64,000 bases of DNA from assembly GCA_038062895.1 (NCBI GenBank), contig JBBTWJ010000003.1:114448-178447 (forward strand). The letters run 5' to 3'. The position numbers were made by a program, and so were the translations under genes. Shown one piece after another: positions 2,025-24,130 of this stretch (positions are counted from its first letter, which is position 1; the number at the start of each line of letters is the position of its first letter). The notes beneath the pieces were generated by a model that was given only the letters and a program-made list of their open reading frames with translations, was not told where the DNA came from and searched no databases. This DNA is from Patescibacteria group bacterium. GTDB lineage: Bacteria; Patescibacteriota; Microgenomatia; UBA10105; UBA927.

Positions 2025-2657
2025 TCACGTCAATAATCTCTTTAGTATCGGTTTAAGACGATCAAGCGCACGCTTGCGGTGGTTAAAGCGTTCAGTTTCC
2101 TCCGGCGTTAGCAGATCGTGGTCATAATACTTGTGAATCTCCGGTAAGAATAACAATGAACGGAAAGGAAATCCATGCGTACGATATTCTGATGATTTTT
2201 CTGCAACGACCCCGCGCGTTTGTTCTTCGACGGTCGTAACTTTCCCATCAGGAAAAACTAATGCGAGAACAAGACGAAGTTGTGCCCCGCGTCGGGCGCG
2301 GGGTAAACCCTGCAATTTCTCAAGAGTATATGAAATCAATTCTTCATCGGTATCTTCGCGATCCCCGTGAATCCACCGGTGCGATTTGACACCAGGCTCG
2401 CCACCAAGAGCGTCTATCTCAAACCCTCCGTCATCAGCAAGCGTAGGAAGGCCGGACTTCTGACAGTAGAACTTTGCCTTAAGAATCGCGTTTTCTTCAA
2501 ACGTACTGCCGGTTTCTTCCACTCCATCGGTTATCCCGATATCTTTTAAACCAATAAGTTCAATAGGAAGGTCTTCCAAAAATCTTTTAATTTCACTGAG
2601 CTTCCCAGGATTGGTTGTAGCAATGAGTAACTTTTTCATAGATGCGATACGAATCAA
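2025..2657 (-). CDS. rdgB: non-canonical purine NTP pyrophosphatase (RdgB/HAM1 family)
   Basis: N-terminal TTNPGKLSE and a Ham1-like fold. Confidence 0.8.
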   Translation of the reverse strand: MIRIASMKKLLIATTNPGKLSEIKRFLEDLPIELIGLKDIGITDGVEETGSTFEENAILKAKFYCQKSGLPTLADDGGFEIDALGGEPGVKSHRWIHGDREDTDEELISYTLEKLQGLPRARRGAQLRLVLALVFPDGKVTTVEEQTRGVVAEKSSEYRTHGFPFRSLLFLPEIHKYYDHDLLTPEETERFNHRKRALDRLKPILKRLLT

Positions 2658-2828
2658 CTAATCATACTAATACTACTAATAGAATCCTTAGAGAATATTC
2701 TTCGAGCATCAACGTCGAGGCGAACTACTCGTTTTGGCCTAAGATACTCAAGCCTAAAATGTTAGAATGAATTGCATACTCCAAACTTAATACAGTAAGC
2801 GTTGTGTGCGCGATGCCTGCTACTTTTA

Positions 2829-5114
2829 TCATGCCACAACCCCCATAAATTCAACCGTGCCGCCACAATATTCCACGATCTTCTCAACAGACTCATGGAG
2901 ACTGCGCGCAACTTGTTCTGATGTGATATCAAACACACCATCGACATTGATCCAAATATTTTTTGTCGCTTCCGTCACCATCGTGCGCTGGGCATCACGG
3001 AAGTTAAAATCGATATTATACCCGCCATCCTGATCATAATACGCAAGTTCCTTGGATGTGTATTTGGTCGCCCCGCTATCTCCAAGCAGTAATATTTCAT
3101 CTCCAACTCCCGCATATCGAAGTATGGTCGGAAACTTGACGGTATCGTAATCAAATGCACCGACCGATATCCGATGCTTCATGACAACGAGATTATATGC
3201 ATCCACACAGGTATTTATGGAATACAGTCCCTTACCCAATGCCACACGACGCAGTAAAGCCTCCGGAGAGGGACGCCGGGAATGCCAATCAATTCCCATT
3301 TCTTTATAGAGCTTACGATAACTTACGATCTCCGGATGCTGACCCAATTGTTCCGTCGTCAAACCCGCGAGAGATACAAGGAATTCTTTTTTTTCTGTTT
3401 CCAACTGTTCATTGAACTTTTGTATCTTTACGTCACGGATAAGCGCGATACCGATACTTGCCGAGGGATACCGCTCTTTTACCTTGGGATCGATCGAAAA
3501 TAAATCCGGTCTATCTATAGATTTCACTGATGACTGTTGTTTAGGTGATTGTGTTTTTTTGTTCAGCGTCAACCGTTCAACCATCACCTCAGTTGGAAAT
3601 TTTTTGAGTAACCACCCTGCCCGCGGCCCGTGCGGTTTATCCAGCGTGACCATATACAACGCATGAAATGCCTTTCCATGATCGATTTCATTTGTTTTTG
3701 CCAAGCGAAAAATTTCCGATTGCAACATTTCAGGATCATTTATTTTTGGCCAAATTATGGAAAGATCATTGAGAAACTTCCACTGTTCCTGGGATAATTC
3801 AATTTCATCAAATCGTTTCAAAGATATTTGATATCGATACTCATCCGGTGCATATTTACTTAACCAGACAGCTGTGTACGTTAAACGATCATTGAGAATA
3901 CGCTTCTCAAACTCACTCAATTGCGTACCTTTCACTGCTTCTAATTTACTCTGAAGGTCAACGTTAGGGAGCTGCCGATAATTAGCTATATCCCGAAATC
4001 TTGGTATAAATAATCCGGGAATTCGTGCGGGCACCTCTCCCGTTTGTGCATACTCAAACGCATGGGACAATTCTTCATCTTCCTCTTTGTTATACGCCTG
4101 CCAACAGCGATCATATTCATCAAAGAGATCCGGAATTGCCATCGTGCTCACAGGATCAAACTCAATTGCACGGTGGTAATCGGTTCTCGTGAAGAGAAAC
4201 CGCCCGATTGATGGAGGCAATAGCTTGGTAAGATCCCTCGCCTTGAGTCCTAACCCTTTTGATGAAGACATTTTTTTACCGCCGATAAGAATAAACTCGT
4301 ACGGCAAATTATAGGGGTTTGTAATATGGAATACTTCTTCACAAAGCGCTTTGGCAATATCGCGTGAACCACCAGCCGAGGAATGATCTTTTCCAGCGCC
4401 TTCAATCGTGACTCCGAGAACTTTCCAGTGTGCCGGCCAATCTACTTTCCACGGAAGCTTTCCGTTTCCATCAAAAGGGCTCACTGTACCGGTATGGCCA
4501 CATCCTTTCGTCCAAGTAACCATCGCCGGCTCACACGTATAAGAAACCATCTTACCGTCCCAACCATGCACCCGGGTCGTGCCCAGCTTCCCGCACTTCT
4601 CACAGATGACCTGGATGGGCATCCAGCCTTTCTCACGCTTTTTGCTCCCGCTTATACGCTGATAGATATCCTGTATCGTTTCCGAATTATCTAATGCTTC
4701 CCGGATAACTCCGTTAAACTTGCCTTCCCGGTACATATCCCAGGATGAAAGATACGTCGCCATCACTCCCATGCTCTTGAGCACCTGTTGAAAATCTTTG
4801 GTAAAATAATCGGCAAAACTCTCATACCCCTTTTCCGGAGACCGTGCGGTACGAAGGGGCTTACCCAACTCATCAGAGAGCGATGAAAGCTCGGGAGGTA
4901 ACCCGTCTATGGGATCGAAGTCGTTCAATACGTAGGTAAACGTCACGCTCTCGTTGGCTCGTTGAAGTGCCCGAAAAACCATATCATGTACGAGAGGTCC
5001 GCGAAGCGAGCCAATATGCGCAAACCCCGACGGGGTAAACATATCGTCCACCCAAAATGGCCGGTGGGCGCCGGAATCAATAATCTGTTTTGCAATTTTG
5101 TCTGCCCAAAACAT
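2829..5114 (-). CDS. lysK: class I lysyl-tRNA synthetase fused to a C-terminal B3/4 (tRNA-binding/editing-like) domain
   Basis: HIGS (HIGH-like) motif and the exact KMSSSKG signature of class I LysRS; the last ~230 aa resemble the PheT B3/4 domain. Confidence 0.85.
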   Translation of the reverse strand: MFWADKIAKQIIDSGAHRPFWVDDMFTPSGFAHIGSLRGPLVHDMVFRALQRANESVTFTYVLNDFDPIDGLPPELSSLSDELGKPLRTARSPEKGYESFADYFTKDFQQVLKSMGVMATYLSSWDMYREGKFNGVIREALDNSETIQDIYQRISGSKKREKGWMPIQVICEKCGKLGTTRVHGWDGKMVSYTCEPAMVTWTKGCGHTGTVSPFDGNGKLPWKVDWPAHWKVLGVTIEGAGKDHSSAGGSRDIAKALCEEVFHITNPYNLPYEFILIGGKKMSSSKGLGLKARDLTKLLPPSIGRFLFTRTDYHRAIEFDPVSTMAIPDLFDEYDRCWQAYNKEEDEELSHAFEYAQTGEVPARIPGLFIPRFRDIANYRQLPNVDLQSKLEAVKGTQLSEFEKRILNDRLTYTAVWLSKYAPDEYRYQISLKRFDEIELSQEQWKFLNDLSIIWPKINDPEMLQSEIFRLAKTNEIDHGKAFHALYMVTLDKPHGPRAGWLLKKFPTEVMVERLTLNKKTQSPKQQSSVKSIDRPDLFSIDPKVKERYPSASIGIALIRDVKIQKFNEQLETEKKEFLVSLAGLTTEQLGQHPEIVSYRKLYKEMGIDWHSRRPSPEALLRRVALGKGLYSINTCVDAYNLVVMKHRISVGAFDYDTVKFPTILRYAGVGDEILLLGDSGATKYTSKELAYYDQDGGYNIDFNFRDAQRTMVTEATKNIWINVDGVFDITSEQVARSLHESVEKIVEYCGGTVEFMGVVA

Positions 5115-5908: not shown

Positions 5909-7459
5909 TTAATTCAGGAGACCTAATTTGGCAAGACGCGATCTGATAGCGCCATTTTTTCTCTCGAATGTTTTAGACAAATCGCCCGTCGACCAACCTT
6001 TTGTATATAGATTCTTCAATTTCTCATCTTGTTCTTTGTCCCAAGGTCGGTAAGCGTTCGGATGTACTTCTCTAATTTTATCAAAACCCGTTCCACCATC
6101 GCTTTTCCCACCGCATCGGGCAATGAACTGCTTATGCATTGCCGCTATTTCCTCCCTTCCCATTTTAGTAAATGTATCGACTGTAGCCACCGACTGTGCT
6201 CTGAACGCCCCATCTTTGGCGACGATATCCGGATGCACCTGAAATGCGCGTTCGTTCCATCCGAGAATGTAGAGATCGGAAAGCCGCCGGATGCGCGAGA
6301 GCGCAACATATCCCTGACCAAATTCAAAAACGCCCGAGAGATCCACGACCGCCTTTTCCAATGTCATTCCTTGACTCTTATGTACTGTGATAGCCCAGGC
6401 CAGACGAAGCGGTAGCTGGGTAATCTGCGCCCGAATGGTACCGTTTTCTTCGACCGACCAATCCATGGGTTCAACGGTAATCTGTCGCCCGTTGCGTACC
6501 GTGACGATAGGATAGCCTTCCTCTTCATCAAATTCTCTAATCACCCCAAGCGTGCCGTTGACAAATCCTTCTTTGGGACTATTTTTCGTGAACATGACTG
6601 TGGCGCCAACTTTCAGAAGAAGCGTTTCAGGCGAAAGACACCCTTTTTTCAGGGCAGCTACCAACGCATCAGGACCTTGCGCGGACATGGGGAAACCACG
6701 CGGCTCGTCCGGAAGCTTCGCGAGCACCTCATCGTTGATGCGATCTACGTCTACGTTATGCGTGAATAGTTTCGGCGCGTTTTTCGGTACGGCTTGCGAA
6801 TGGGTTTTTCTCGCTTCAATCTGATGCAAGTGATCGATAGTGAACGCATTGCGCCGGATTGCTGAAAGTACGCCCAAAAAATCACGGTCGTCCTGTCGGT
6901 ATTGTTCGGTAAGGTAGCATACGGTTGGATTTGCCCCAATCCACGCAGAAGAATCATACGCGAATCGCGCTAATGATTTTTCAATGAGCGTGGCTTGTAC
7001 ACTTTGTTCTGTTTCTTTTTTTACCACTGGCGGCAGTTGAAAAAAATCACCGGAAAAAACTACCTGCATACCGCCAAACGGTTCCGGATGCTGTGTAATC
7101 TTACGAACTACCGCGTCAACCATGGAGAGCGTCTCGGGATTGAGCATGGATACTTCTTCGATGATAAGAACATTAGCCCGACGGACGCGCTTGGTAATAT
7201 ATTGACTGGATGCTATTTTTTGAAGATCGTGTTGAGAGAGCGTCGTTTTTATCCCTATCCCGCTCCATGAATGGATCGTCATCCCGCCGATATGGGTGGC
7301 CGCGATACCAGTTGAGGCCGTTATTGCCGGTTCAATACCCCGACCACGCAAATACGCTACATACTCGTTGATCGCATAGGTCTTGCCGCTTCCCGGCTCC
7401 CCGGTCAAAAAAACATTAGCGCCGGTTTTGAGTATGGCAAGTGCTTGAGATTGCGTCAT
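5909..7459 (-). CDS. PIF1/RecD-family ATP-dependent DNA helicase with a C-terminal HTH-like tail
   Basis: Walker A GEPGSGKT, AAA_30/UvrD_C_2-type layout, SF1B motifs. Confidence 0.75.
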   Translation of the reverse strand: MTQSQALAILKTGANVFLTGEPGSGKTYAINEYVAYLRGRGIEPAITASTGIAATHIGGMTIHSWSGIGIKTTLSQHDLQKIASSQYITKRVRRANVLIIEEVSMLNPETLSMVDAVVRKITQHPEPFGGMQVVFSGDFFQLPPVVKKETEQSVQATLIEKSLARFAYDSSAWIGANPTVCYLTEQYRQDDRDFLGVLSAIRRNAFTIDHLHQIEARKTHSQAVPKNAPKLFTHNVDVDRINDEVLAKLPDEPRGFPMSAQGPDALVAALKKGCLSPETLLLKVGATVMFTKNSPKEGFVNGTLGVIREFDEEEGYPIVTVRNGRQITVEPMDWSVEENGTIRAQITQLPLRLAWAITVHKSQGMTLEKAVVDLSGVFEFGQGYVALSRIRRLSDLYILGWNERAFQVHPDIVAKDGAFRAQSVATVDTFTKMGREEIAAMHKQFIARCGGKSDGGTGFDKIREVHPNAYRPWDKEQDEKLKNLYTKGWSTGDLSKTFERKNGAIRSRLAKLGLLN

Positions 7460-8499
7460 TTATTGTTTCTCTTTAACAATTTTTTCGCCAAGCGGTCAAA
7501 ATCTGATACGTAGTTTTTGTCCTGTATTTTTTTATATTTTTCATACTCAGCAAGGGCAAGAGTTTCTGCTACTTCATGGCTGATTCTTCCGGCGTCACCT
7601 AGAATTTGTCGCTCGTTAAATTTCAGAAAGGCGTTCAATCGTGATACCCAGTCCTTCATATACATGATAATCCCACGCTTTGCTTGCATTTCTGCATAGT
7701 CGAGGTACATAGTCACAATTCTGTTTAAGTGGTCAAGTTCTCTTTCATTCAAATAGTTTTTGGCGATCACGACATCTGACTCTCGAATGGTACCCTTTGG
7801 AGAATTTTTCCAAACAGTGAGCCCCATATATGACTTGGTACTATCAGCTCTTTCGTGTACTATCTCTGAGGCAGTTTTACCGGTGATGGCAAAGTGGAGT
7901 TTGTTTTGCACTGTTGCAAAAAATTGTTTGGTAATTTCTTCATCGGAATCATAATCAGCGCTGCACTGAGCGTAAATATCGGTAATTTTTTGATACATGC
8001 GCCTTTCGCTTGACCGTATATCTCGTATTCGTGCAAGCTGTTCCTCAAAATAATCCTTTCCAAAAATATTGTATGGGTCTTTTAGTTTCTCGTCATTCAT
8101 TGTAAATCCCTTGATGATATATTCTTTCAATCTTTCCGTCGCCCATATTCTAAATAGAGTCGCCTGCCGACTACTCACTCGATAACCAACAGAAAGAATA
8201 GCGTCAAGGTTGTAAAATTCCACATCTCTGGTAACCAGACGTTTCCCTTCATTTTGAACTTGTGCAATTTTTGCACTCGTTGAATTTTTGTCTAACTCGC
8301 CTTCCTGAAAAATGTTTTGAAGATGTTTGGTAACTACGCTTCTCTCCACACCAAAAAGATCGGAGATTTTTGCTTGCGTCAACCACACGGTTTCATCGCG
8401 CAAGAAAATCTCAACTTTTACCTGACCGTTTGGGGTAGTGTAAAGGAGAAACTCCGTAAAGCTATTATTTGGAACGATTTTTTTGTTGTTTTTTTTCAT
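7456..8499 (-). CDS. RhuM-family protein (DNA-binding protein typically clustered with restriction-modification loci)
   Basis: Strong match to the RhuM core (DLFGVERSVVTKHLQNIFQEGEL ... LSVGYRVSSRQATLFRIWATERLKEY); its start overlaps the helicase stop by 4 bp. Confidence 0.75.
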   Translation of the reverse strand: MKKNNKKIVPNNSFTEFLLYTTPNGQVKVEIFLRDETVWLTQAKISDLFGVERSVVTKHLQNIFQEGELDKNSTSAKIAQVQNEGKRLVTRDVEFYNLDAILSVGYRVSSRQATLFRIWATERLKEYIIKGFTMNDEKLKDPYNIFGKDYFEEQLARIRDIRSSERRMYQKITDIYAQCSADYDSDEEITKQFFATVQNKLHFAITGKTASEIVHERADSTKSYMGLTVWKNSPKGTIRESDVVIAKNYLNERELDHLNRIVTMYLDYAEMQAKRGIIMYMKDWVSRLNAFLKFNERQILGDAGRISHEVAETLALAEYEKYKKIQDKNYVSDFDRLAKKLLKRNNK

Positions 8500-13185: not shown

Positions 13186-14049
13186 CTAGCGGAATTCGGA
13201 AAGAAGTGTATCCAAATCAAAGCTCCCAAGTGGTTGGTTTGCCAGCGGACCTGCGGCCAACGCCGGCTCACGATCTTCACTCGTCGGGGCTGCTTCCCGG
13301 TAAAACACACCGAGGGGAATCTTATCTCCCCATTCAAACGCTTTTTCAATAGCCGCGAGGCGATTATCGGGCACATACTTGACTGAATCGAGTTGGTACA
13401 ACCGAGTCCGATACCATTGATACGTATGGACGTGATTGAACGTGACGCATGGCTGCAAAATATCAAGAACGGAAAACCCCTTATGCTTGATCGCCTCGGC
13501 TATAAGCTTGGTGAGTCCCGGCATGTCACCGGCAAACCCACGCGCGACGAACGTCGCACCGGAAACCAGGGCTAACGCCAACGGATTAACCGGCGTATCC
13601 ACGACCCCCTCCGGGGTAGATTTCGTCTTGAGATGATCCTTCGCCGTGGGAGAGGCCTGTCCCGTCGTTAAGCCATACACCTGATTGTCATGGATGAGAA
13701 CCGTGATATCCGGATTCCGTTTCGCCGCATGGATAAAGTGATTACCTCCCTCGCCCAAACAATCACCATCTCCCGCAATGGCAATGACTGGAATCGTATG
13801 ATTGGCAAGCTTCGCGCCTTGCGCTATCGGCAATGACCGGCCATGAAGGCCTTCGACTCCATAGGTGCGCATCCAGGCGCTCATATTCCCATGACAGCCA
13901 ATCCCATAAACAAAAAGAGCGTCATCCGGGCCGATCCCAAGCTCAACCAATGCGTTTTTGAGTGCCATCCAGATACCGAAATCCCCACACCCCGGACACC
14001 AGGTTGGAAGGTAACCGGTTTTAAAACTGTCTGCAGTGATGGATGTCAT
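13186..14049 (-). CDS. korB: 2-oxoacid:ferredoxin oxidoreductase beta subunit (TPP-binding)
   Basis: CPGCGDFG thiamine-PP/FeS-proximal motif and the GDGD TPP-binding region. Confidence 0.85.
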   Translation of the reverse strand: MTSITADSFKTGYLPTWCPGCGDFGIWMALKNALVELGIGPDDALFVYGIGCHGNMSAWMRTYGVEGLHGRSLPIAQGAKLANHTIPVIAIAGDGDCLGEGGNHFIHAAKRNPDITVLIHDNQVYGLTTGQASPTAKDHLKTKSTPEGVVDTPVNPLALALVSGATFVARGFAGDMPGLTKLIAEAIKHKGFSVLDILQPCVTFNHVHTYQWYRTRLYQLDSVKYVPDNRLAAIEKAFEWGDKIPLGVFYREAAPTSEDREPALAAGPLANQPLGSFDLDTLLSEFR

Positions 14050-14052
14050 ATG

Positions 14053-14092
14053 GTTACTTAGTTACTTAGTTACTTAGTTAGTTGCTTGGTTA
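14053..14092. repeat. tandem octamer GTTACTTA x3 plus degenerate copies, abutting the korB start codon
   Basis: Read directly from the sequence in the korA-korB intergenic leader. Confidence 0.5.
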
Positions 14093-14122
14093 CATTTGCT
14101 TTGTGCAAAGTAACATACATTG

Positions 14123-15862
14123 CTAACGCACTCTCTCAATAATCTCCTCGGGCAAGAACGGTCTGCCATCGTATTTTAAGAGTTTTTCCGTAATATCGAT
14201 ACCCGTCTGTTGGCGGACAAGAGAAGCCAACTGTCCGGTAGCATTTTGTTCTATATCAATGATACGGGTGGATCCCGTCAAGAGCGAGGTAGCAGATTCT
14301 ACAGGGAACGGATAAAGCCACGGAAAATAAATAACTTTTGCTGATCCGCCACCCACATGAAAGTCCGTCATGTTCATCGCTTCCAAAACCGGCCCAAGTG
14401 TAGAACCCCATGTCACTATTGTCGTTTGGGCAGATGCATCACCGTGAACCACGGGCGGCATGATGACGTTCTTAATTGCACTAAGTTTCTTCAGACGCCT
14501 GTCTACCATGGCTTGGCGAATCCCAGCATCTTCCGATACCAGTCCCGTTTCATCGTGTTCGTAGGAATTTGCCATGTATTGCCCGCCCTTCATACCGGGG
14601 AAGCTACGGGCGGAAACCCCATCAGAAGCGCCCAAATCAAAGCGTTTATAACTCGTTTCACTTGGGTGTTCTCCCTGCGGCATCACCTTTCCCCGATCAA
14701 TGCTCACCGTGCCTTTCATTTTGCTTGTCAGCACGCACCACTGGCTTTCATTGAGATATTTATCCGTAAGCACAAAAACCGGCACATGAAATTGTTCTGC
14801 GAGTTCAAACGCTTTGATCGTGAGTTCATAGGCCTCTGTAGCATCAAACGGAGCTAACACAATCCTGGGAAACTCTCCATGCCCCGCATGAATAATAAAT
14901 CCAAGATCTCCCTGCTCGGTCCAGGTAGGCATACCAGTGGCAGGACCAACCCGCATCCCCATATCAATCACCAGCGGCACTTCTATCATCCCTGCCAAGG
15001 ATACCCCTTCGACCATGAGGGCGAACCCTCCGCCACTCGTGGCCACCATACTGCGGACACCACTCAACGCCGCACCGATAGCCATATTGATACCGGCAAT
15101 CTCATCTTCCGGCTGTTTATAGACAATTCCTAGTGATTTAGCGTGATCAGCCAGAAACGAAATAAGAGAATTGATGGGCGTCATGGGATAAATTGCCGCG
15201 AATTTAAGTCCCGCCCGTACCGCGCCTACTCCCACGGCCTCGCTGCCGTTTATGAGAAGATAATCCTCCTTCTTGAGAGGTACTTCAAGCGTAAGAGATG
15301 AAAAAGACGAGACCACGCCAGTCACCGCGTCAAATCCCGCGCGGGCAATATCGATGTTATGGTTGACGACCGCCTCACCCTTTTTCCCAAACTGATCACG
15401 GATGACGTCGGCTAAATACTCAAACGGTGCGCCAAGAAATGCAAAACTTGTTCCGAGTGCCACTGTGTTGCGCATGATCACGTCTCCACCTTTTTTTTGC
15501 ACTAATTCACGAAATGGAACCGGAACAAGAGAAACCCCTTTGGGTAATTCTTCACCCTTCCAATCATAATCATTCGGGTCAAAGACAAGAACCGTGCCTT
15601 CTGTCATGTCTTTTTTATGAAGCTCGACCGTCTCTTTATTGAGGGCAATCAAAATGTGAAGCGAACGATCTAGGGAATGAAACGGTTTTGTAGCAATCCG
15701 TACCGTCACCGCGTTATGCCCTCCGCGGATAAGTGAGGGGTATTCGTTGAGTGAAAATATATAATACCCGTGCCTGGAAAAAGCCCGGGCAAGCATCGTG
15801 CCGGAAGCCATGATACCAAATCCTGCTTCCCCCCCTATTTTCCATGTAATGGACTGTGCCAT
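14123..15862 (-). CDS. korA: 2-oxoacid:ferredoxin oxidoreductase alpha subunit (fused gamma-alpha domains)
   Basis: N-terminal WKIGGEAGFGI gamma-type domain followed by a POR alpha domain; ATG at 15862 preferred over the TTG at 15889. Confidence 0.85.
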   Translation of the reverse strand: MAQSITWKIGGEAGFGIMASGTMLARAFSRHGYYIFSLNEYPSLIRGGHNAVTVRIATKPFHSLDRSLHILIALNKETVELHKKDMTEGTVLVFDPNDYDWKGEELPKGVSLVPVPFRELVQKKGGDVIMRNTVALGTSFAFLGAPFEYLADVIRDQFGKKGEAVVNHNIDIARAGFDAVTGVVSSFSSLTLEVPLKKEDYLLINGSEAVGVGAVRAGLKFAAIYPMTPINSLISFLADHAKSLGIVYKQPEDEIAGINMAIGAALSGVRSMVATSGGGFALMVEGVSLAGMIEVPLVIDMGMRVGPATGMPTWTEQGDLGFIIHAGHGEFPRIVLAPFDATEAYELTIKAFELAEQFHVPVFVLTDKYLNESQWCVLTSKMKGTVSIDRGKVMPQGEHPSETSYKRFDLGASDGVSARSFPGMKGGQYMANSYEHDETGLVSEDAGIRQAMVDRRLKKLSAIKNVIMPPVVHGDASAQTTIVTWGSTLGPVLEAMNMTDFHVGGGSAKVIYFPWLYPFPVESATSLLTGSTRIIDIEQNATGQLASLVRQQTGIDITEKLLKYDGRPFLPEEIIERVR

Positions 15863-15870
15863 ATCTTTAA

Positions 15871-15906
15871 CAATACAACAACCTGACAATACAACAAATT
15901 GACAAT
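15871..15906. promoter_or_regulatory. direct repeats TGACAATACAACAA (two copies plus a half copy) in the 66-bp divergent region between korA and the ANL ligase
   Basis: CAATACAACAA at 15871-15881 and 15887-15897, TGACAAT again at 15900; the same AACAATAC unit recurs four times inside the ligase CDS. Confidence 0.4.
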
Positions 15907-15928
15907 TTCTGAAAGTGCATGAATTCTC

Positions 15929-18319
15929 ATGCGACGATCGACTACTATATATAGTATGAATGATCTACCGCGGGTCCGACTACCTGTAAACTCTGTCGAA
16001 GAATTACTCGCAAGTCACGCGGGTACATATGCTGATAAAGCGGCGCTCATCGCGGTTCACGTAGATACCGACGAGATCAATACGATTTCTTACCGCGAGC
16101 TGAACATCCTGGTCGGCCGGGCGGCAGCGTGGCTTTCCTCTCTGGGCATCAAGCGCGGTGACCGGTTTGCAATCCTCATGCCCAACGCTCCGGAAGTCAT
16201 AATCCTGGAACTGGCCGGTGCGATAATCGGGGCCGCAACGGTCCCGCTGGATTCCAAACGCGATACCATAGAACGCAAACTATTCAAATTAAAAGACACC
16301 GGCGCAAAAGCAATCCTTATCAAACAAGAGGAAAAATCTGCAGAAGAAAGAGAAACTCTTGCACAGGCATTACCGCATCTCACAATCCGCACATGGACCA
16401 CGTTTGGTGAATTTCAAACCATACTGACAGGGCCAGGCCCTGTCACTCACGCAAAGGGATCGCTTGAGGACTACTACGTGATCCTCTATACGTCAGGGAC
16501 AACCGCGCTTCCCAAAGGAGTCCTTCTTTCCACACGAGCGTGCCTGTTAAACGCTATGGGCATCCTACAGTGGCAACAATTTACTCACGATGATGTCTTT
16601 TCTATTGTGCTCCCGCTTCATCACATCAACTCGACAGAATTTAGTCTTGCTATGATACTCGCCGGCGGTACGATCGTTCTCAATTCCCGCTATAGCGCAA
16701 GCCACTTCTGGCAGGTAATCAACCGCTTCCGGATAACCAACACGAGTGTCGTTCCCACGATCCTCCACGATCTTCTTACCCGTGTCGATGAATTTATATC
16801 ATTACACCTGGATGTATCCTCACTTAAACGCATCTGTATCGGTTCAGCTCCTGTACTACCAGAAGAAACAATGCGATTCTACGATTCATTTAAGGTACGA
16901 GTCACTCAAGGATATGGCCAGACCGAAACTGCGCTGCGCGTGGCCGGTGTGCCGGTAGACACAAACGAAGAGACGTACCGCGAATTTGTCAAAAGCAACA
17001 CGATCGGTACCGAGCTTGCCAATAATCACCTCGCAATTATGGACGGGAATAATAATGAAAAGAACGAAAGCGAGGAGGGGGAAATATGCATAGCCGGCCC
17101 AATTCTCGCCGGTGGATACCTCAATAACCCGGAGGAATCAACAAAATCATTCAAAAATAGCTGGTTTCATTCCGGCGACCTCGGGTACTGGAAAATGATC
17201 GACGGCAAAAAATATTTCTTCATCATCGGGCGTATCAAAGAAATCATCATCAAAGGCGGAGTCAACCTCTCACCGTCTGCCATAGAAGATGCACTTCTCA
17301 AAGCATTTCCCCAAATCGATGAGGTGAGCGTCGTGGGATACCCGGATGCGCGTATGGGGGAAGAAATTGCAGCGGTTATAGTCTTGACAGGGTTGGACCC
17401 TGTCAAACAACAGGGCTCAACCCTAGCGGACAAATTTGTCCAATTAGTTTTAGATGCTGCTCAAAATGGAAAAATCTCCGGACTTTCCCGTTATGAGTCG
17501 CCCAAAAAGGTATTTATTGTCGATACCCTCCCGAAAACCTCGACCGGAAAAATCCAAAGAGTTGAGATAAAAAAAAGTGTTGCCACACGTATCAAAAGCG
17601 AGCACCCCCACCATTACTATGTCCGCACCATTGCTAATCATGAGACGGAAATCATGAAACAGGCTCTCAAGATAAATAACGCGCGGTTTCCGTTTATTCC
17701 ATCACTATTGGAGGAATTTATTGCTCGAACACAAAATGGGCTCTTTTTCGGTGTTTTTGATGAATCTGAAGGTCTGATCGGTTCTCTCTCCTGTATCAGG
17801 ACGAACCATACGATGATAGAAAAGGTCAAAACGTGGAATGAAGCAACCGCAGAGGGAACGCTCGCAAATCACGATCCCCACGGAGATACGCTTGCATGCG
17901 TGGCGATCTCTGTCAAAACAACATCGAACAATACAACAATACAACAATACAACAATACTAACGAAGATACATTACAACGCCTCGCAAAAAAATATATTAA
18001 AGAATACGTAAGTTTGGACAAAGATCACGTGCTAAATTTTCATAAACGATCCAAGGGAGGAATCCCTGGGGCTACGGTATGGAAAATTTTGGAAAACGGC
18101 AGACGGGAAGATAAAGAGGCCATAGGGTACAACGTCCTCATGAAGTATCCTACCATCGATGTATCCACAACTATTATCCGGAGTAACGCACCCTCTCCGG
18201 CAATTCTTCTCATCGAACACGCACTTCTTTACGCGAAAGAGCATGGAGTAAAAGATGTCATTGCGTTCTCCCGTCCTTCGGGGTTTCGAAAATATCTGGC
18301 AGAAAAACTACGGATATAA
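15929..18319 (+). CDS. ANL-superfamily adenylate-forming enzyme (acyl-CoA synthetase-like) fused to a ~250-aa C-terminal GNAT-like domain
   Basis: A3 YTSGTTALPKG, A5 GYGQTE, A7 YHSGDLGYW, A8 GRIKEIIIKGG, A10 PKTSTGKIQR; the C-terminal domain ends ...AILLIEHALLYAKEHG, which is acyltransferase-like. Confidence 0.7.
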   Translation: MRRSTTIYSMNDLPRVRLPVNSVEELLASHAGTYADKAALIAVHVDTDEINTISYRELNILVGRAAAWLSSLGIKRGDRFAILMPNAPEVIILELAGAIIGAATVPLDSKRDTIERKLFKLKDTGAKAILIKQEEKSAEERETLAQALPHLTIRTWTTFGEFQTILTGPGPVTHAKGSLEDYYVILYTSGTTALPKGVLLSTRACLLNAMGILQWQQFTHDDVFSIVLPLHHINSTEFSLAMILAGGTIVLNSRYSASHFWQVINRFRITNTSVVPTILHDLLTRVDEFISLHLDVSSLKRICIGSAPVLPEETMRFYDSFKVRVTQGYGQTETALRVAGVPVDTNEETYREFVKSNTIGTELANNHLAIMDGNNNEKNESEEGEICIAGPILAGGYLNNPEESTKSFKNSWFHSGDLGYWKMIDGKKYFFIIGRIKEIIIKGGVNLSPSAIEDALLKAFPQIDEVSVVGYPDARMGEEIAAVIVLTGLDPVKQQGSTLADKFVQLVLDAAQNGKISGLSRYESPKKVFIVDTLPKTSTGKIQRVEIKKSVATRIKSEHPHHYYVRTIANHETEIMKQALKINNARFPFIPSLLEEFIARTQNGLFFGVFDESEGLIGSLSCIRTNHTMIEKVKTWNEATAEGTLANHDPHGDTLACVAISVKTTSNNTTIQQYNNTNEDTLQRLAKKYIKEYVSLDKDHVLNFHKRSKGGIPGATVWKILENGRREDKEAIGYNVLMKYPTIDVSTTIIRSNAPSPAILLIEHALLYAKEHGVKDVIAFSRPSGFRKYLAEKLRI
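17927..17958. repeat. tandem octamer AACAATAC x4 inside the ANL-ligase CDS (encodes SNNTTIQQYNNT)
   Basis: Four perfect 8-nt units; 32 nt is not a multiple of 3 yet the frame is intact. Confidence 0.6.
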
Positions 18320-18562
18320 TTGTTTGCCGGTTTCATCCGTAATGAAAATTGCCATAACGGGACAACCTTTGGCAGCCTCGAGGAGCGTCTCATCGGTTTC
18401 CCCATCTACCGTATCTAAAATTATGGCTTTCGCTTCATCATCCAGTGCCCAAGCTTTGGGCGCAATAGCAATACACGTCGCCGCTCCAATGCAGAGGCTC
18501 CTATCGATCCGCATCGTCAGCTTGCGAATCTTCCGTTTCACTTTTGGGTCGTTATCATCCAT
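18308..18562 (-). CDS. small single-cluster ferredoxin
   Basis: CIGAATC ... CP cysteine pattern; start set at the ATG that sits 1 nt from an inverted-repeat arm (MDDNDPKVKRK...) rather than the longer listed ORF. Confidence 0.6.
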   Translation of the reverse strand: MDDNDPKVKRKIRKLTMRIDRSLCIGAATCIAIAPKAWALDDEAKAIILDTVDGETDETLLEAAKGCPVMAIFITDETGKQLYP

Positions 18563-18563
18563 G

Positions 18564-18698
18564 CCAAGTAGTGAAATTTCGATCTTTGCCTTACGCGTCA
18601 AAATTTCAGTATCCTCTAATTATAAATCAGTATCATTGAATTCCAAATAGGTCATTCGATATGGCAAAGATAAAGCGTATCGAAATTCTACTACCTGG
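18564..18698. repeat. inverted-repeat-bounded element, copy 2 (arms CCAAGTAGTGAAATTTCGAT / ATCGAAATTCTACTACCTGG)
   Basis: Left arm 1 nt from the ferredoxin ATG; right arm 12 nt from the sufU stop. Confidence 0.5.
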
Positions 18699-21517: not shown

Positions 21518-24130
21518 TTATCCAACACTTCCCTCCATTTGTAATTGAATAAGTCTATTTAATTCGACGGCGTACTCGAGCGGGAGTTCTTTGACGATGG
21601 GCTCGATAAATCCATTAACAATCATGGACTCTGCCTGTGCTTTGCCAATCCCGCGGCTTTCAAGATAAAATAGTTGTTCATCCCCGATTTTAGAAACTCT
21701 CGCCTCATGCTCGATCGACACATCCTGCTCATCTATCTTCATCGTGGGATAGGTATCGGAGCGCGAAGCAGCATCGAGCAGTAATGCGTCACAAACGACT
21801 TTACTTTTGCTGTTGGTGGCACCCGGGATTACTTGTACCAGCCCCCGGTACGACGTTCTCCCCCCGCCCCGGCTTATGGATTTGGAAATAATCTGTGATG
21901 TGGTTTCCGGCGCCAAGTGCACTACTTTCCCTCCTGCATCTTGATGTTGCCCTGCTCCGGCATAAGCAATCGAAAGGATTTCTCCGCGTGCTTTTCTCCC
22001 CACTAAATAGACGCTCGGGTACTTCATGGTGAGTTTGGAATTATGAACGATGAAGCCTTGTGAAATGAAATTGCCTGTCCCCTCAACTTCGATATCCCAT
22101 GTAGGAATCAGATCGGAGGACTGCTTAGAAACTACAACTGGCACTATCTCAACAGTGTTATGTAATGTAATGCTTGAGCGCCCGACGAGTCTATGCATTT
22201 GAAGTTTTTTTGTCGATCGCCCTAGTATTTGTTTACGCATACCCGTACTCACGAAGTTCGCAAATCTATAATCTATCGGAAAATCCAGCCTATACGCGCC
22301 ATGCGCGATAGATGACACACCTAAAATACGAACTCGTTTTGGTTGGCTGAATTCGACATGAAGTCGAGATGTAATTCCGAGCGTTACGAGAAGTGACGCA
22401 ATATCTTCCAAAAGCGGTCGATTGACCGATTTAATATGAAATCGGTCATCAATGTTCCCGTCGGCATCCAAGTAGCCTGCGATAAATGATAACCGTTGCG
22501 ACTGGGGAAGCGACCACACCCATTGAGGAACACGCTTAGTCGCTGCGGTACCTAAAAATCCGTTAAGGCGAAAAAGCTCTGTAATCTCTTTACTGCTCCA
22601 AGCGAGATGGTGACCATCGGATCGTTCGGTAGGTGCAATATTCGTCAACGTCCGCATACAACTCATTAAGCGTTCCCTTGCTCTATCTTGGCGAGGCGTC
22701 GAGAAACCAACTTTCGCCCAACGAATAACTCCTTTTGTTTTTCCAAAGCGCAAATCTATGTTGCCATCGCCAATCCAATACCCGAATAACCACATCATTG
22801 CATCATCTGTATGTGCTATTTTTATCATCCTGGCTGCTCTTATACGTGTCATTTTCAATGATGAAGCATACTGATTATATGATTCAAACGTTGTAATCAA
22901 CCCGGGCATCTTCAGTGAATATTGAGCACCATAATCAATAGAAACACGGGGAACAATTGCTTTTTTTAGCTGATCAGCACGGACGTATGCCAGTCGGTAC
23001 CGTCCGAGCTTCTTGGGTTTTTGGACATCGTATATATATGAATAAAATGGATGGTTAGCAGTAACTCTTAGTGTTCGTTTTCCGATGGAAACCGTATGTA
23101 CAGGTTGACGACCGGAAAAACGCTTCGCTTTTACTTTTTGGAAGCAGAGTATTCCTTTTTGGTCATCATAGGAGAGAACTTTATCACCTAACGCAAGAGA
23201 CTCAATTGTTTTCACTCCTTCGGGAGTAGTCACTGTCGAACCCTCTGCTAAACAACCTAAATTTCCGTCGACCCATTCCATGACGCCTTCCTCTTCTACC
23301 CGCGCGCGCTTGGTGACCAGGTTATAGACATTGGTACTCCAATTTTGGATGGTGGTGTAACGGACCCGCGCTCCCTTTTTCACAATGATCTCAACCACTG
23401 CGCTATGGAGTGAATCTGTCGTGTAAATGGGAGCGGTGCATCCTTCGACGTAATGGACGAAGCTCCCCTCCTCGGCAATGATGAGGGTGCGCTCGAACTG
23501 TCCCATGTTGGCCGCATTGATACGGAAATACGCCTGAAGCGGCAAGTCCACGCGTACGCCTTTGGGCACATACACAAATGAACCTCCGGACCAAACTGCG
23601 CTATTGAGCGCAGCAAATTTATTATCTCCGGGAGGAATAATGGTGCCAAAGTACTGTTTCACAATCTCCGGATGCTCACGAAGTCCCGAATCCATATCCA
23701 AAAAAATGACCCCTTTTTTGCTAAGCGTTTCATGAATACTTTTGTACACAACTTCCGACTCATACTGTGCGCTGACCCCCGAAAGAAATTTCTTTTCCGC
23801 CTCCGGAATGCCAATCCGGTCATACGTATCACGGATTTCTACCGGAAGATCCTCCCAGCGCGATGCACGTTTTTCCGTCGGATTAATATAGTAGTAGATA
23901 TCATCAAAATTGATAGTCGTGAGATCTCCCCCCCACGCGGGTAAGGGTTTGCGGAAAAATTGATCAAGCGCTTTCAGCCGGAACTGCCGCATCCAGGGAG
24001 GGTCATTTTTCCGTACGCTCAATTCTTCAACAACGGTGCGGTCGAGCCCTTTTTTTGATTTAAATACGTAATTTTCCGGCTTGCGGAAACCATATTTGTA
24101 ACTACCGTTTACTGGTTTAAATTGGAGCAT
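21518..24130 (-). CDS. sufB: FeS-cluster assembly protein SufB interrupted by a 405-aa intein
   Basis: Exteins total 465 aa and read as canonical SufB (...EWVDGNLG / SKLTMKYPSVYL...); the inserted segment starts with Cys and ends with His-Asn, followed by Ser. Confidence 0.9.
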   Translation of the reverse strand: MLQFKPVNGSYKYGFRKPENYVFKSKKGLDRTVVEELSVRKNDPPWMRQFRLKALDQFFRKPLPAWGGDLTTINFDDIYYYINPTEKRASRWEDLPVEIRDTYDRIGIPEAEKKFLSGVSAQYESEVVYKSIHETLSKKGVIFLDMDSGLREHPEIVKQYFGTIIPPGDNKFAALNSAVWSGGSFVYVPKGVRVDLPLQAYFRINAANMGQFERTLIIAEEGSFVHYVEGCTAPIYTTDSLHSAVVEIIVKKGARVRYTTIQNWSTNVYNLVTKRARVEEEGVMEWVDGNLGCLAEGSTVTTPEGVKTIESLALGDKVLSYDDQKGILCFQKVKAKRFSGRQPVHTVSIGKRTLRVTANHPFYSYIYDVQKPKKLGRYRLAYVRADQLKKAIVPRVSIDYGAQYSLKMPGLITTFESYNQYASSLKMTRIRAARMIKIAHTDDAMMWLFGYWIGDGNIDLRFGKTKGVIRWAKVGFSTPRQDRARERLMSCMRTLTNIAPTERSDGHHLAWSSKEITELFRLNGFLGTAATKRVPQWVWSLPQSQRLSFIAGYLDADGNIDDRFHIKSVNRPLLEDIASLLVTLGITSRLHVEFSQPKRVRILGVSSIAHGAYRLDFPIDYRFANFVSTGMRKQILGRSTKKLQMHRLVGRSSITLHNTVEIVPVVVSKQSSDLIPTWDIEVEGTGNFISQGFIVHNSKLTMKYPSVYLVGRKARGEILSIAYAGAGQHQDAGGKVVHLAPETTSQIISKSISRGGGRTSYRGLVQVIPGATNSKSKVVCDALLLDAASRSDTYPTMKIDEQDVSIEHEARVSKIGDEQLFYLESRGIGKAQAESMIVNGFIEPIVKELPLEYAVELNRLIQLQMEGSVG
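22040..23254 (-). mobile_element. intein with a LAGLIDADG homing-endonuclease domain inside sufB (residues 293-697)
   Basis: N-terminal CLAEGSTV splicing block, two LAGLIDADG motifs (LFGYWIGDGN and IAGYLDADGN), C-terminal ...FIVHN followed by +1 Ser. Confidence 0.85.

Follow-up and report, generated by a model that had tools for sequence, protein, structure and literature searches.

An adenylate-forming ligase fused to a segment-permuted GNAT-like domain in groundwater Patescibacteria

The gene described here lies on the plus strand of a 64-kb stretch (positions 114,448 to 178,447; hereafter the window) of contig JBBTWJ010000003.1, assembly GCA_038062895.1, a metagenome-assembled genome (MAG) of an ultra-small bacterium of the Patescibacteria (Candidate Phyla Radiation, CPR) from Hainich aquifer groundwater. 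In one polypeptide it encodes a class I adenylate-forming (ANL) ligase and a C-terminal domain that homology assigns to the CurA-type GNAT decarboxylases, as a member with permuted segments. The fusion is a new architectural and topological variant of these two known kinds of enzyme and is unannotated in public databases. Its parts are as follows.

15929..18319, plus strand: fusion gene, longest open reading frame (ORF), 796 aa; likelier start at ATG 15956, giving 787 aa
16013..17551, plus strand: ANL half, recognised by Pfam and by intact motifs A3, A5, A7, A8 and A10
17618..17914, plus strand: first block of the GNAT-like domain, beta1-alpha1-alpha2-beta2-beta3-beta4 (residues 564-662)
17915..17962, plus strand: variable linker at the permutation junction (residues 663-678), holding an array of 8-mers
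17963..18151, plus strand: second block of the GNAT-like domain, with a helix, D-x-V-x-x-F-H705, a KPKGG insert, beta6, R725, D728 and beta7 to Y740
18152..18316, plus strand: transposed block, with a P-loop-like segment, alpha3, beta5 (AFS781-R782-P) and a terminal helix

Results

The gene and its ligase half

The 796-residue ORF is present as a preliminary description of the locus had given it. The likelier start is ATG 15956, because both the NCBI entry called by the Prokaryotic Genome Annotation Pipeline (MEK7543402.1, 787 aa, 'class I adenylate-forming enzyme family protein [Patescibacteria group bacterium]') and homologue P0012 begin at the equivalent of M10. The same gene and neighbourhood were assembled independently, and identically, from several 0.1/0.2 um filter samples.

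In Pfam, residues 29-398 match AMP-binding (E 5.5e-72) and residues 453-541 match AMP-binding_C (E 5e-10). The core ANL motifs that had been read in the N-terminal part of the protein were all located within its first 544 residues: A3 as YTSGTTALPKG (187-197), A5 as GYGQTE (328-333), A7 as SGDLGY (415-420), A8 as GRIKEIIIKGGVN (434-446) and A10 as PKTSTGKIQR (535-544). The two Pfam domains, motifs A3, A5, A7 and A8 and the A10 lysine place the protein in the ANL superfamily, and 41 ANL enzymes in the PDB match this half at E < 1e-30; by these measures the ligase half is intact. Its A4 region is unusual, reading LPLHHINST (228-236), and is invariant across bacterial and archaeal fusions, as is Arg337 within GYGQTETALR (family pattern GYGxTETxLR).

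Among PDB sequences, the top solved relatives of the ligase half are oxalate-CoA ligase AAE3 (2e-56) and FadD13 (9e-56), with MatB lower (2e-38). AAE3 and FadD13 have all catalytic ANL motifs in common with the fusion protein, but their A4 region reads LPLFHVHG and neither carries a C-terminal extension. An identity as oxalyl-CoA synthetase was considered and rejected, the oxalate-specific His319 of AAE3 being replaced by Leu336 here; a serine is present at the counterpart of AAE3 Ser289, but as part of a generic GSAP motif.

A C-terminal domain with a GNAT fold

The extra C-terminal domain of about 250 residues noted in the preliminary description extends beyond AMP-binding_C over residues 545-796, and it has the three-dimensional fold of a GNAT, as had been surmised. 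The Pfam comparison suggested for recognising that fold gave no hit: as a single sequence, residues 545-796 have no significant match in Pfam, NCBIfam or the PDB sequences. No Pfam GNAT model matched the domain or its close homologues, Acetyltransf_1 being passed by distant relatives of canonical element order only. The best structural matches are GNAT decarboxylases of the CurA subfamily, namely CurA GNAT_L (2REE), GphF (6MFC) and SxtA (7UCI). A family profile run against the whole PDB matched only SxtA (E 5e-5) and CurA (E 9e-5), and a profile of the canonical-order relatives matched SxtA (1e-20), CurA (7e-19) and GphF (2e-14), with no other significant match.

The model of the full-length protein (predicted local distance difference test, pLDDT, 85.7; predicted template-modelling score, pTM, 0.64) has two well-folded halves. 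Because the pTM is only moderate, no fixed interdomain geometry is predicted.

Distribution and age of the fusion

A word-indexed search of 5.8 billion proteins returned six relatives of the C-terminal domain, all fragments. An exhaustive profile search with the domain returned 115 clusters at 50% identity, which include fusions of 725-820 aa as well as genuine stand-alone proteins of 238-343 aa. The fusion is fixed: domain order is the same in every case, with the GNAT-like domain always C-terminal. Close relatives come from Gottesmanbacteria, Daviesbacteria and unclassified Patescibacteria. The identities of the two halves fall in parallel, from 75/69% down to 34/30%, from which it follows that the fusion is old and that its halves co-evolved. 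A distant fusion homologue of 814 aa (L021; GCA_964602245.1, contig CAZRPY010000006.1) is encoded beside fibrillarin and Nop5. The presence of these two genes indicates that the L021 genome is archaeal, and hence that the family crosses domains of life.

Two observations concern the records themselves. In L018 (812-3243) the ANL half lies in two ORFs (812-2098 and 2110-3243), for which a frameshift, a pseudogene or an assembly error are possible explanations. The third-party MAGs of L010, L011, L013, L015, L016 and L018 are titled 'uncultured Gammaproteobacteria bacterium' and have Gottesmanbacteria-like synteny (Lon, korBA, fusion gene, ferredoxin, suf) with 50-90% protein identity; these titles look like placeholders or errors.

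The GNAT-like domain is segment-permuted

In CurA, SxtA and the canonical-order relatives, beta1-beta4 are followed by the P-loop, alpha3 and beta5 (with its Thr/Ser), then by alpha4, the FH motif and beta6-beta7, where the chain ends. In the fusion family beta1-beta4 are followed by a variable linker, alpha4, the FH motif and beta6-beta7, and only then by the P-loop, alpha3, beta5 (with its Ser) and a final helix. The second block thus corresponds to CurA alpha4 through beta7, and the transposed block to the segment that comes after beta4 in canonical GNATs, so that the canonical element order of the superfamily is absent from this domain.

Several comparisons agree on this arrangement. Against the family profile, some 20 canonical-order relatives align as three blocks that are not collinear, each scoring 18-46 bits, with profile positions 198-235 coming before positions 155-185; these relatives stop directly after beta7, where the fusion family runs on. 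When CurA and SxtA are aligned with the fusion protein, the alpha3-beta5 segment of both falls, as an insertion, exactly at its linker. The tail of the domain is modelled with high confidence and the linker with low confidence; the latter varies from 6 to 43 aa across the family and is poorly conserved. With the segments de-permuted, the CurA score rose to 29.9 bits from 23.7, a gain that one control insertion matched, and a tail-only profile picked the expected CurA segment only weakly. No description of a permuted GNAT was found in the literature searched.

Conservation of the decarboxylase positions

The decarboxylase dyad consists of CurA His389/Thr355 (HsMCD His423/Ser329); the histidine is positioned by Tyr419 (HsMCD Tyr456) and sits where canonical GNATs have a general-acid tyrosine (Froese et al., PMC3701320). 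The Smith laboratory has defined a 'CurA subfamily' by the His and Ser/Thr, whose members are reported to lack acyl-transfer activity (bioRxiv 10.1101/2025.03.07.642089).

In the fusion family, F704, H705, K709, D728, G733, Y740 and R782 are invariant among 35 diverse members, and S781 is nearly so, with Ser or Thr in at least 90% of them. HMMER pairs the stretch D-x-V-x-x-F-H705...G-A...R725-x-x-D728...Y740 with CurA 'DPLLRFHQIHGA...YRPKD...GVLVSY'. Counted along CurA, H705 falls on H389, Y740 on Y419 and R725 on R404, exactly at the aligned positions; H705 is also paired with the FH motif of SxtA, and Y740 with the Tyr of CurA 'GVLVSY'. The equivalence of S781 and CurA T355 was reached through the canonical-order relatives: the 'AFSRP' block of the family corresponds to their 'AYSRP' block, whose Ser pairs in strong, collinear alignments with T355 and with the Thr of SxtA. 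By alignment, the domain carries the catalytic His, the Thr/Ser on beta5 and the His-bonding Tyr of the CurA subfamily. The decarboxylase positions and the charged residues K709, D728 and R782 stay invariant in bacterial and archaeal members alike, even where identity drops to about 28%. Such invariance argues for a working active site.

A proposed reaction and its alternatives

We propose that the enzyme follows an 'activate then decarboxylate' scheme giving acyl-CoA, a proposal to which we assign an even chance. The ANL half would adenylate a small acid in which another carboxyl group lies beta to the carbonyl being activated (malonate or a malonate substituted at C2, for example methylmalonate) and would then ligate it to CoA, probably rather than to a carrier protein. 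The C-terminal domain would take the malonyl-type thioester, whose carbonyl would be polarised by His705 (held by Tyr740) and Ser781; CO2 would leave via an enolate stabilised by the same His705 and Ser781, yielding acetyl-CoA or the matching acyl-CoA. Taken together, the two steps would amount to malonate-type acid + ATP + CoA -> acyl-CoA + CO2 + AMP + PPi, which is the logic of MatB plus MatA or malonyl-CoA decarboxylase (MCD) within one polypeptide. In favour of the proposal are the profile matches to CurA-type decarboxylases, the conserved decarboxylase residues, the intact ANL motifs, the presence of small-dicarboxylate ligases (oxalate-CoA ligase and MatB) among the best solved relatives of the ligase half, and the parallel divergence of the two halves in an unvarying domain order.

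Several findings weigh against this proposal. The ligase half reaches the cut-off of no NCBIfam model and scores 212.6 bits against a cut-off of 558 with the malonyl-CoA synthase model PRK07514, which sets it apart from MatB, and FadD13 fits it as well as the dicarboxylate ligases do. The C-terminal domain goes unmatched by the Pfam MCD model (PF05292). Known CurA-type domains of polyketide synthases (PKS) use substrates bound to acyl carrier protein (ACP), whereas no ACP or PKS domain was found in the fusion protein or in neighbouring genes, so that a PKS loading module is not what is seen here. The equivalence of S781 and T355 depends on a two-step alignment across the permutation. No malonate transporter or other malonate gene lies near the fusion gene in the window or in related loci, and the other distant fusions have unrelated neighbours with none in common, context outside one clade being heterogeneous. 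Finally, EryM, long called a decarboxylase, was shown by the Smith laboratory not to be one, and that precedent calls for caution in assigning decarboxylase function.

The preliminary description had favoured an amide synthase, in which an acyl-AMP or acyl-CoA formed by the ANL half would serve the GNAT domain as donor for the acylation of an amine, for instance an amino acid or a polyamine. While the description was right about the fold, it was probably wrong about the chemistry, and we consider this alternative unlikely. FeeM, an N-acyl amino acid synthase whose acyl-amide logic it echoed, does have a GNAT fold; its catalytic residues differ, however, it uses acyl-ACP, and it is only a weak Foldseek match to the domain (rank 34, E 7e-3), with no match to N-acyl amino acid synthase Pfam families in the fusion protein. 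The nearest relatives of the domain by structure and by sequence are all decarboxylases, the conserved residues are the decarboxylase set, with a His, like that of CurA and MCD, standing where canonical GNATs have their general-acid Tyr, and acyl transfer is reported to be lacking in the CurA subfamily. That the domain is instead non-catalytic, serving as a scaffold, as a regulatory CoA or acyl-CoA sensor, or to acylate the A10 lysine of the ligase in the manner of Pat/AcuA, would be in keeping with the vestigial or truncated GNAT and ligase domains documented as scaffolds in EryM, SidF and AprA and with the moderate pTM, but is quite improbable given the invariance of its decarboxylase positions and of K709, D728 and R782 across bacteria and archaea and the existence of stand-alone versions.

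Relation to known systems

The C-terminal domain has in common with CurA GNAT_L, GphF and SxtA the His, Thr/Ser and Tyr set, the equivalents of R404 and D407, and the motif DxVxxFH...GA...RPxD...Y. Those domains, part of PKS loading modules, take as substrates malonyl-type units carried on ACP, and their strands run in canonical order; the present one is fused to an ANL ligase outside any ACP or PKS context, has its P-loop, alpha3 and beta5 at the C-terminus, and carries a KPKGG insert after the catalytic His. The siderophore ligase-GNAT fusions DfoC and EryM (the latter with a vestigial ligase) likewise place an adenylating ligase and a GNAT in one polypeptide. Their ligase, however, is of the nonribosomal-peptide-synthetase-independent siderophore (NIS) synthetase (IucA/AcsD) type rather than ANL, and their GNAT is of the EryM acyltransferase subfamily, with its conserved residues on the opposite face of the sheet. 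MatB and MatA/MCD, whose logic the proposed reaction follows, are two distinct polypeptides. MCD carries an N-terminal helical domain that the C-terminal domain described here lacks, and it has Asp at position 404, where this domain has the CurA-type Arg. No natural MatB-MCD fusion was found in the literature searched.

To our knowledge, GNAT-fold decarboxylases occur only in PKS loading modules and among malonyl-CoA decarboxylases. If the proposed decarboxylation is correct, the fusion would add a third setting, the primary metabolism of ultra-small uncultivated bacteria and archaea. What is new is the architecture, a fusion to an ANL ligase, together with a rearranged chain topology that is missed by current domain libraries. 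Because homologues are publicly annotated only as 'fatty-acid-CoA ligase' or 'adenylate-forming enzyme', a whole reaction step would be missing from metabolic reconstructions. The permuted GNAT also offers a natural example on which fold plasticity can be tested, and a one-protein route from diacid to acyl-CoA could supply acyl-CoA starter units in engineered pathways.

Gene neighbourhood

The fusion gene is flanked by the following genes.

13186..15862, minus strand: two-subunit 2-oxoacid:ferredoxin oxidoreductase (OFOR), comprising the 579-aa gamma-alpha fusion korA and the 287-aa korB
14123..15862, minus strand: korA, divergent from the fusion gene
13186..14049, minus strand: korB, after korA
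18308..18562, minus strand: single-cluster 4Fe-4S ferredoxin, 84 aa, convergent with the fusion gene and overlapping it by 12 bp

The divergent korAB pair and the convergent ferredoxin are as first described; the 66-bp spacer between korA and the fusion gene that was given with them applies only to the longest ORF, and from ATG 15956 it is about 93 bp, the likelier value. A suf string (Rrf2, SufC, SufB with an intein, SufD, Rieske, SufS, SufU, ferredoxin) ends with this ferredoxin, and the arrangement of Lon, korB, korA, divergent fusion gene, convergent ferredoxin, SufU, SufS, Rieske and SufD recurs in 11 of the 14 related loci. The product of the proposed reaction could supply the adjacent OFOR and ferredoxin in Gottesmanbacteria-like genomes. 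Around stand-alone and canonical-order members, the sequence available was too short or gave no informative context. Because the neighbours of other fusions are unrelated, context places weak constraints on function; it mildly suggests a link to ferredoxin, iron-sulfur (Fe-S) or 2-oxoacid metabolism.

A role in Fe-S cluster or ferredoxin biology, for instance by way of a small thiol or cofactor-related acyl compound rather than in general carbon metabolism, would account for the position of the fusion gene against the ferredoxin end of the suf string in the window and in 10 related loci. It would also fit a distant homologue (P0024, 784 aa; L025 7001-9355 and L026 3685-6039) whose gene is co-directional and overlapping inside a suf operon of the order Rrf2, cysteine desulfurase, fusion gene, SufB, SufS, SufU, SufC and then ferredoxin. 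Other fusions, however, have no suf neighbour, and suf is among the few conserved operons of small genomes, which makes adjacency less informative. We know of no chemistry that connects ANL enzymes or GNAT decarboxylases with Fe-S assembly, and this role seems to us highly unlikely.

Other features of the neighbourhood were also noted. The best sigma-70-like site of the region (18619-18646, minus strand; TTGGAA, a 16-nt spacer and TATAAT, 10/12 matches) lies just upstream of the ferredoxin gene, which may therefore have its own promoter inside the suf string. The SufB gene (window 21518-24130, minus strand) encodes 870 aa in total, including the intein and its LAGLIDADG homing-endonuclease domain. 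Immediately upstream of Lon and a beta-lactamase-like gene, at about 5930-8490 of the window (minus strand; L001 1-2563), there is a PIF1-family helicase together with a RhuM-family gene; this stretch may be a mobile or defence-related insertion.

Arrays of 8-bp repeats

Arrays with a period of 8 bp, and others at the same linker position, were located as follows.

17927-17958, plus strand: four perfect tandem copies of AACAATAC (100% identity) in the linker, encoding NNTTIQQYNNT
15869..15908, plus strand: five units repeating every 8 bp in the intergenic region, AACAATAC AACAACCT GACAATAC AACAAATT GACAATTT
14056..14079, minus strand: three copies of AACTAAGT in the korA-korB spacer, ending 6 nt before the korB ATG
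L011 1949-2004: korA/ANL intergenic region, 7 units
L010 6334-6365: coding linker of the ortholog
L017 6418-6449: coding linker of the ortholog
L007 6326-6364: AGGAATC x5.3
L013 6330-6357: CCTACAA x4, perfect
L018 about 2850-2878: AGTTAAA x4
L011 4015-4034: GAATCAG x2.9

The echo of the promoter-region repeat inside the coding sequence, pointed out in the preliminary description, is real: all five copies of the 12-mer ACAATACAACAA in the 64 kb lie in the intergenic region (two) or in the internal array (three), against 0.38 occurrences expected by chance, and five were reached in 0 of 100 shuffles. Runs of at least three of the degenerate unit [AG]AC[AT]A[ACT]NN form six arrays in 294 kb, both strands counted, and none in 30 Markov simulations; all three window arrays fall inside the 3.9-kb korBA/ANL locus. 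The three linker arrays share one reading frame, and their AACAAT cores are intact even at synonymous positions, variation being confined to NN, while the domains of the L010 and L017 orthologs are 63% and 48% identical to that of the window. Closer orthologs have no linker array of the 8-bp unit, and others have the unrelated period-7 arrays listed above, whose repeat lengths are not divisible by 3. Tandem arrays show an enrichment of about 5-fold in the linker (p about 8e-4, for an interval chosen after seeing the data).

These arrays bear on a further alternative, in which the two halves would act in the opposite order or independently in fermentative energy metabolism: OFOR would make a carboxy-acyl-CoA (e.g. 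malonyl-CoA from oxaloacetate), the GNAT-like domain would decarboxylate it, and the ANL half would run in reverse (acyl-CoA + AMP + PPi -> acid + ATP). Co-regulation is suggested by the 8-bp arrays, which in the 64 kb are confined to the korB leader, the ANL gene and the intergenic region between that gene and korA, in line with the korAB and ferredoxin pairing of the 11 loci. That synteny is nevertheless limited to one clade and may merely be inherited, more distant fusions have no OFOR neighbour, and ANL enzymes running in reverse are exceptional; we regard this alternative as highly unlikely. A more inclusive version of the activate-then-decarboxylate proposal, which we hold to be doubtful, is that the fusions form an unrecognised family of Patescibacteria and some archaea, in which an ANL ligase and a permuted CurA-type decarboxylase convert malonate-type acids to acyl-CoA and expression is tied to the neighbouring OFOR by a new 8-nt periodic cis-element that is also conserved in the coding linker.

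Two other roles for the arrays were considered and are not supported. A slip of one unit either way would cut the protein at 674-696 aa, ahead of the catalytic residues; as to a slipped-strand phase switch, all five independent assemblies carry four units, the 90% cluster has no members truncated at the array, and a scan of Joint Genome Institute (JGI) metagenomes for array variants gave no hits. As to an operator defining a regulon, the window holds no further copy of the 14-nt unit, and the intergenic region has no strong sigma-70 promoter. The korA/ANL intergenic regions of L006-L010 and L014, which are free of 8-bp arrays, share another motif, TTACC(T)TA(T/C)CATAC.

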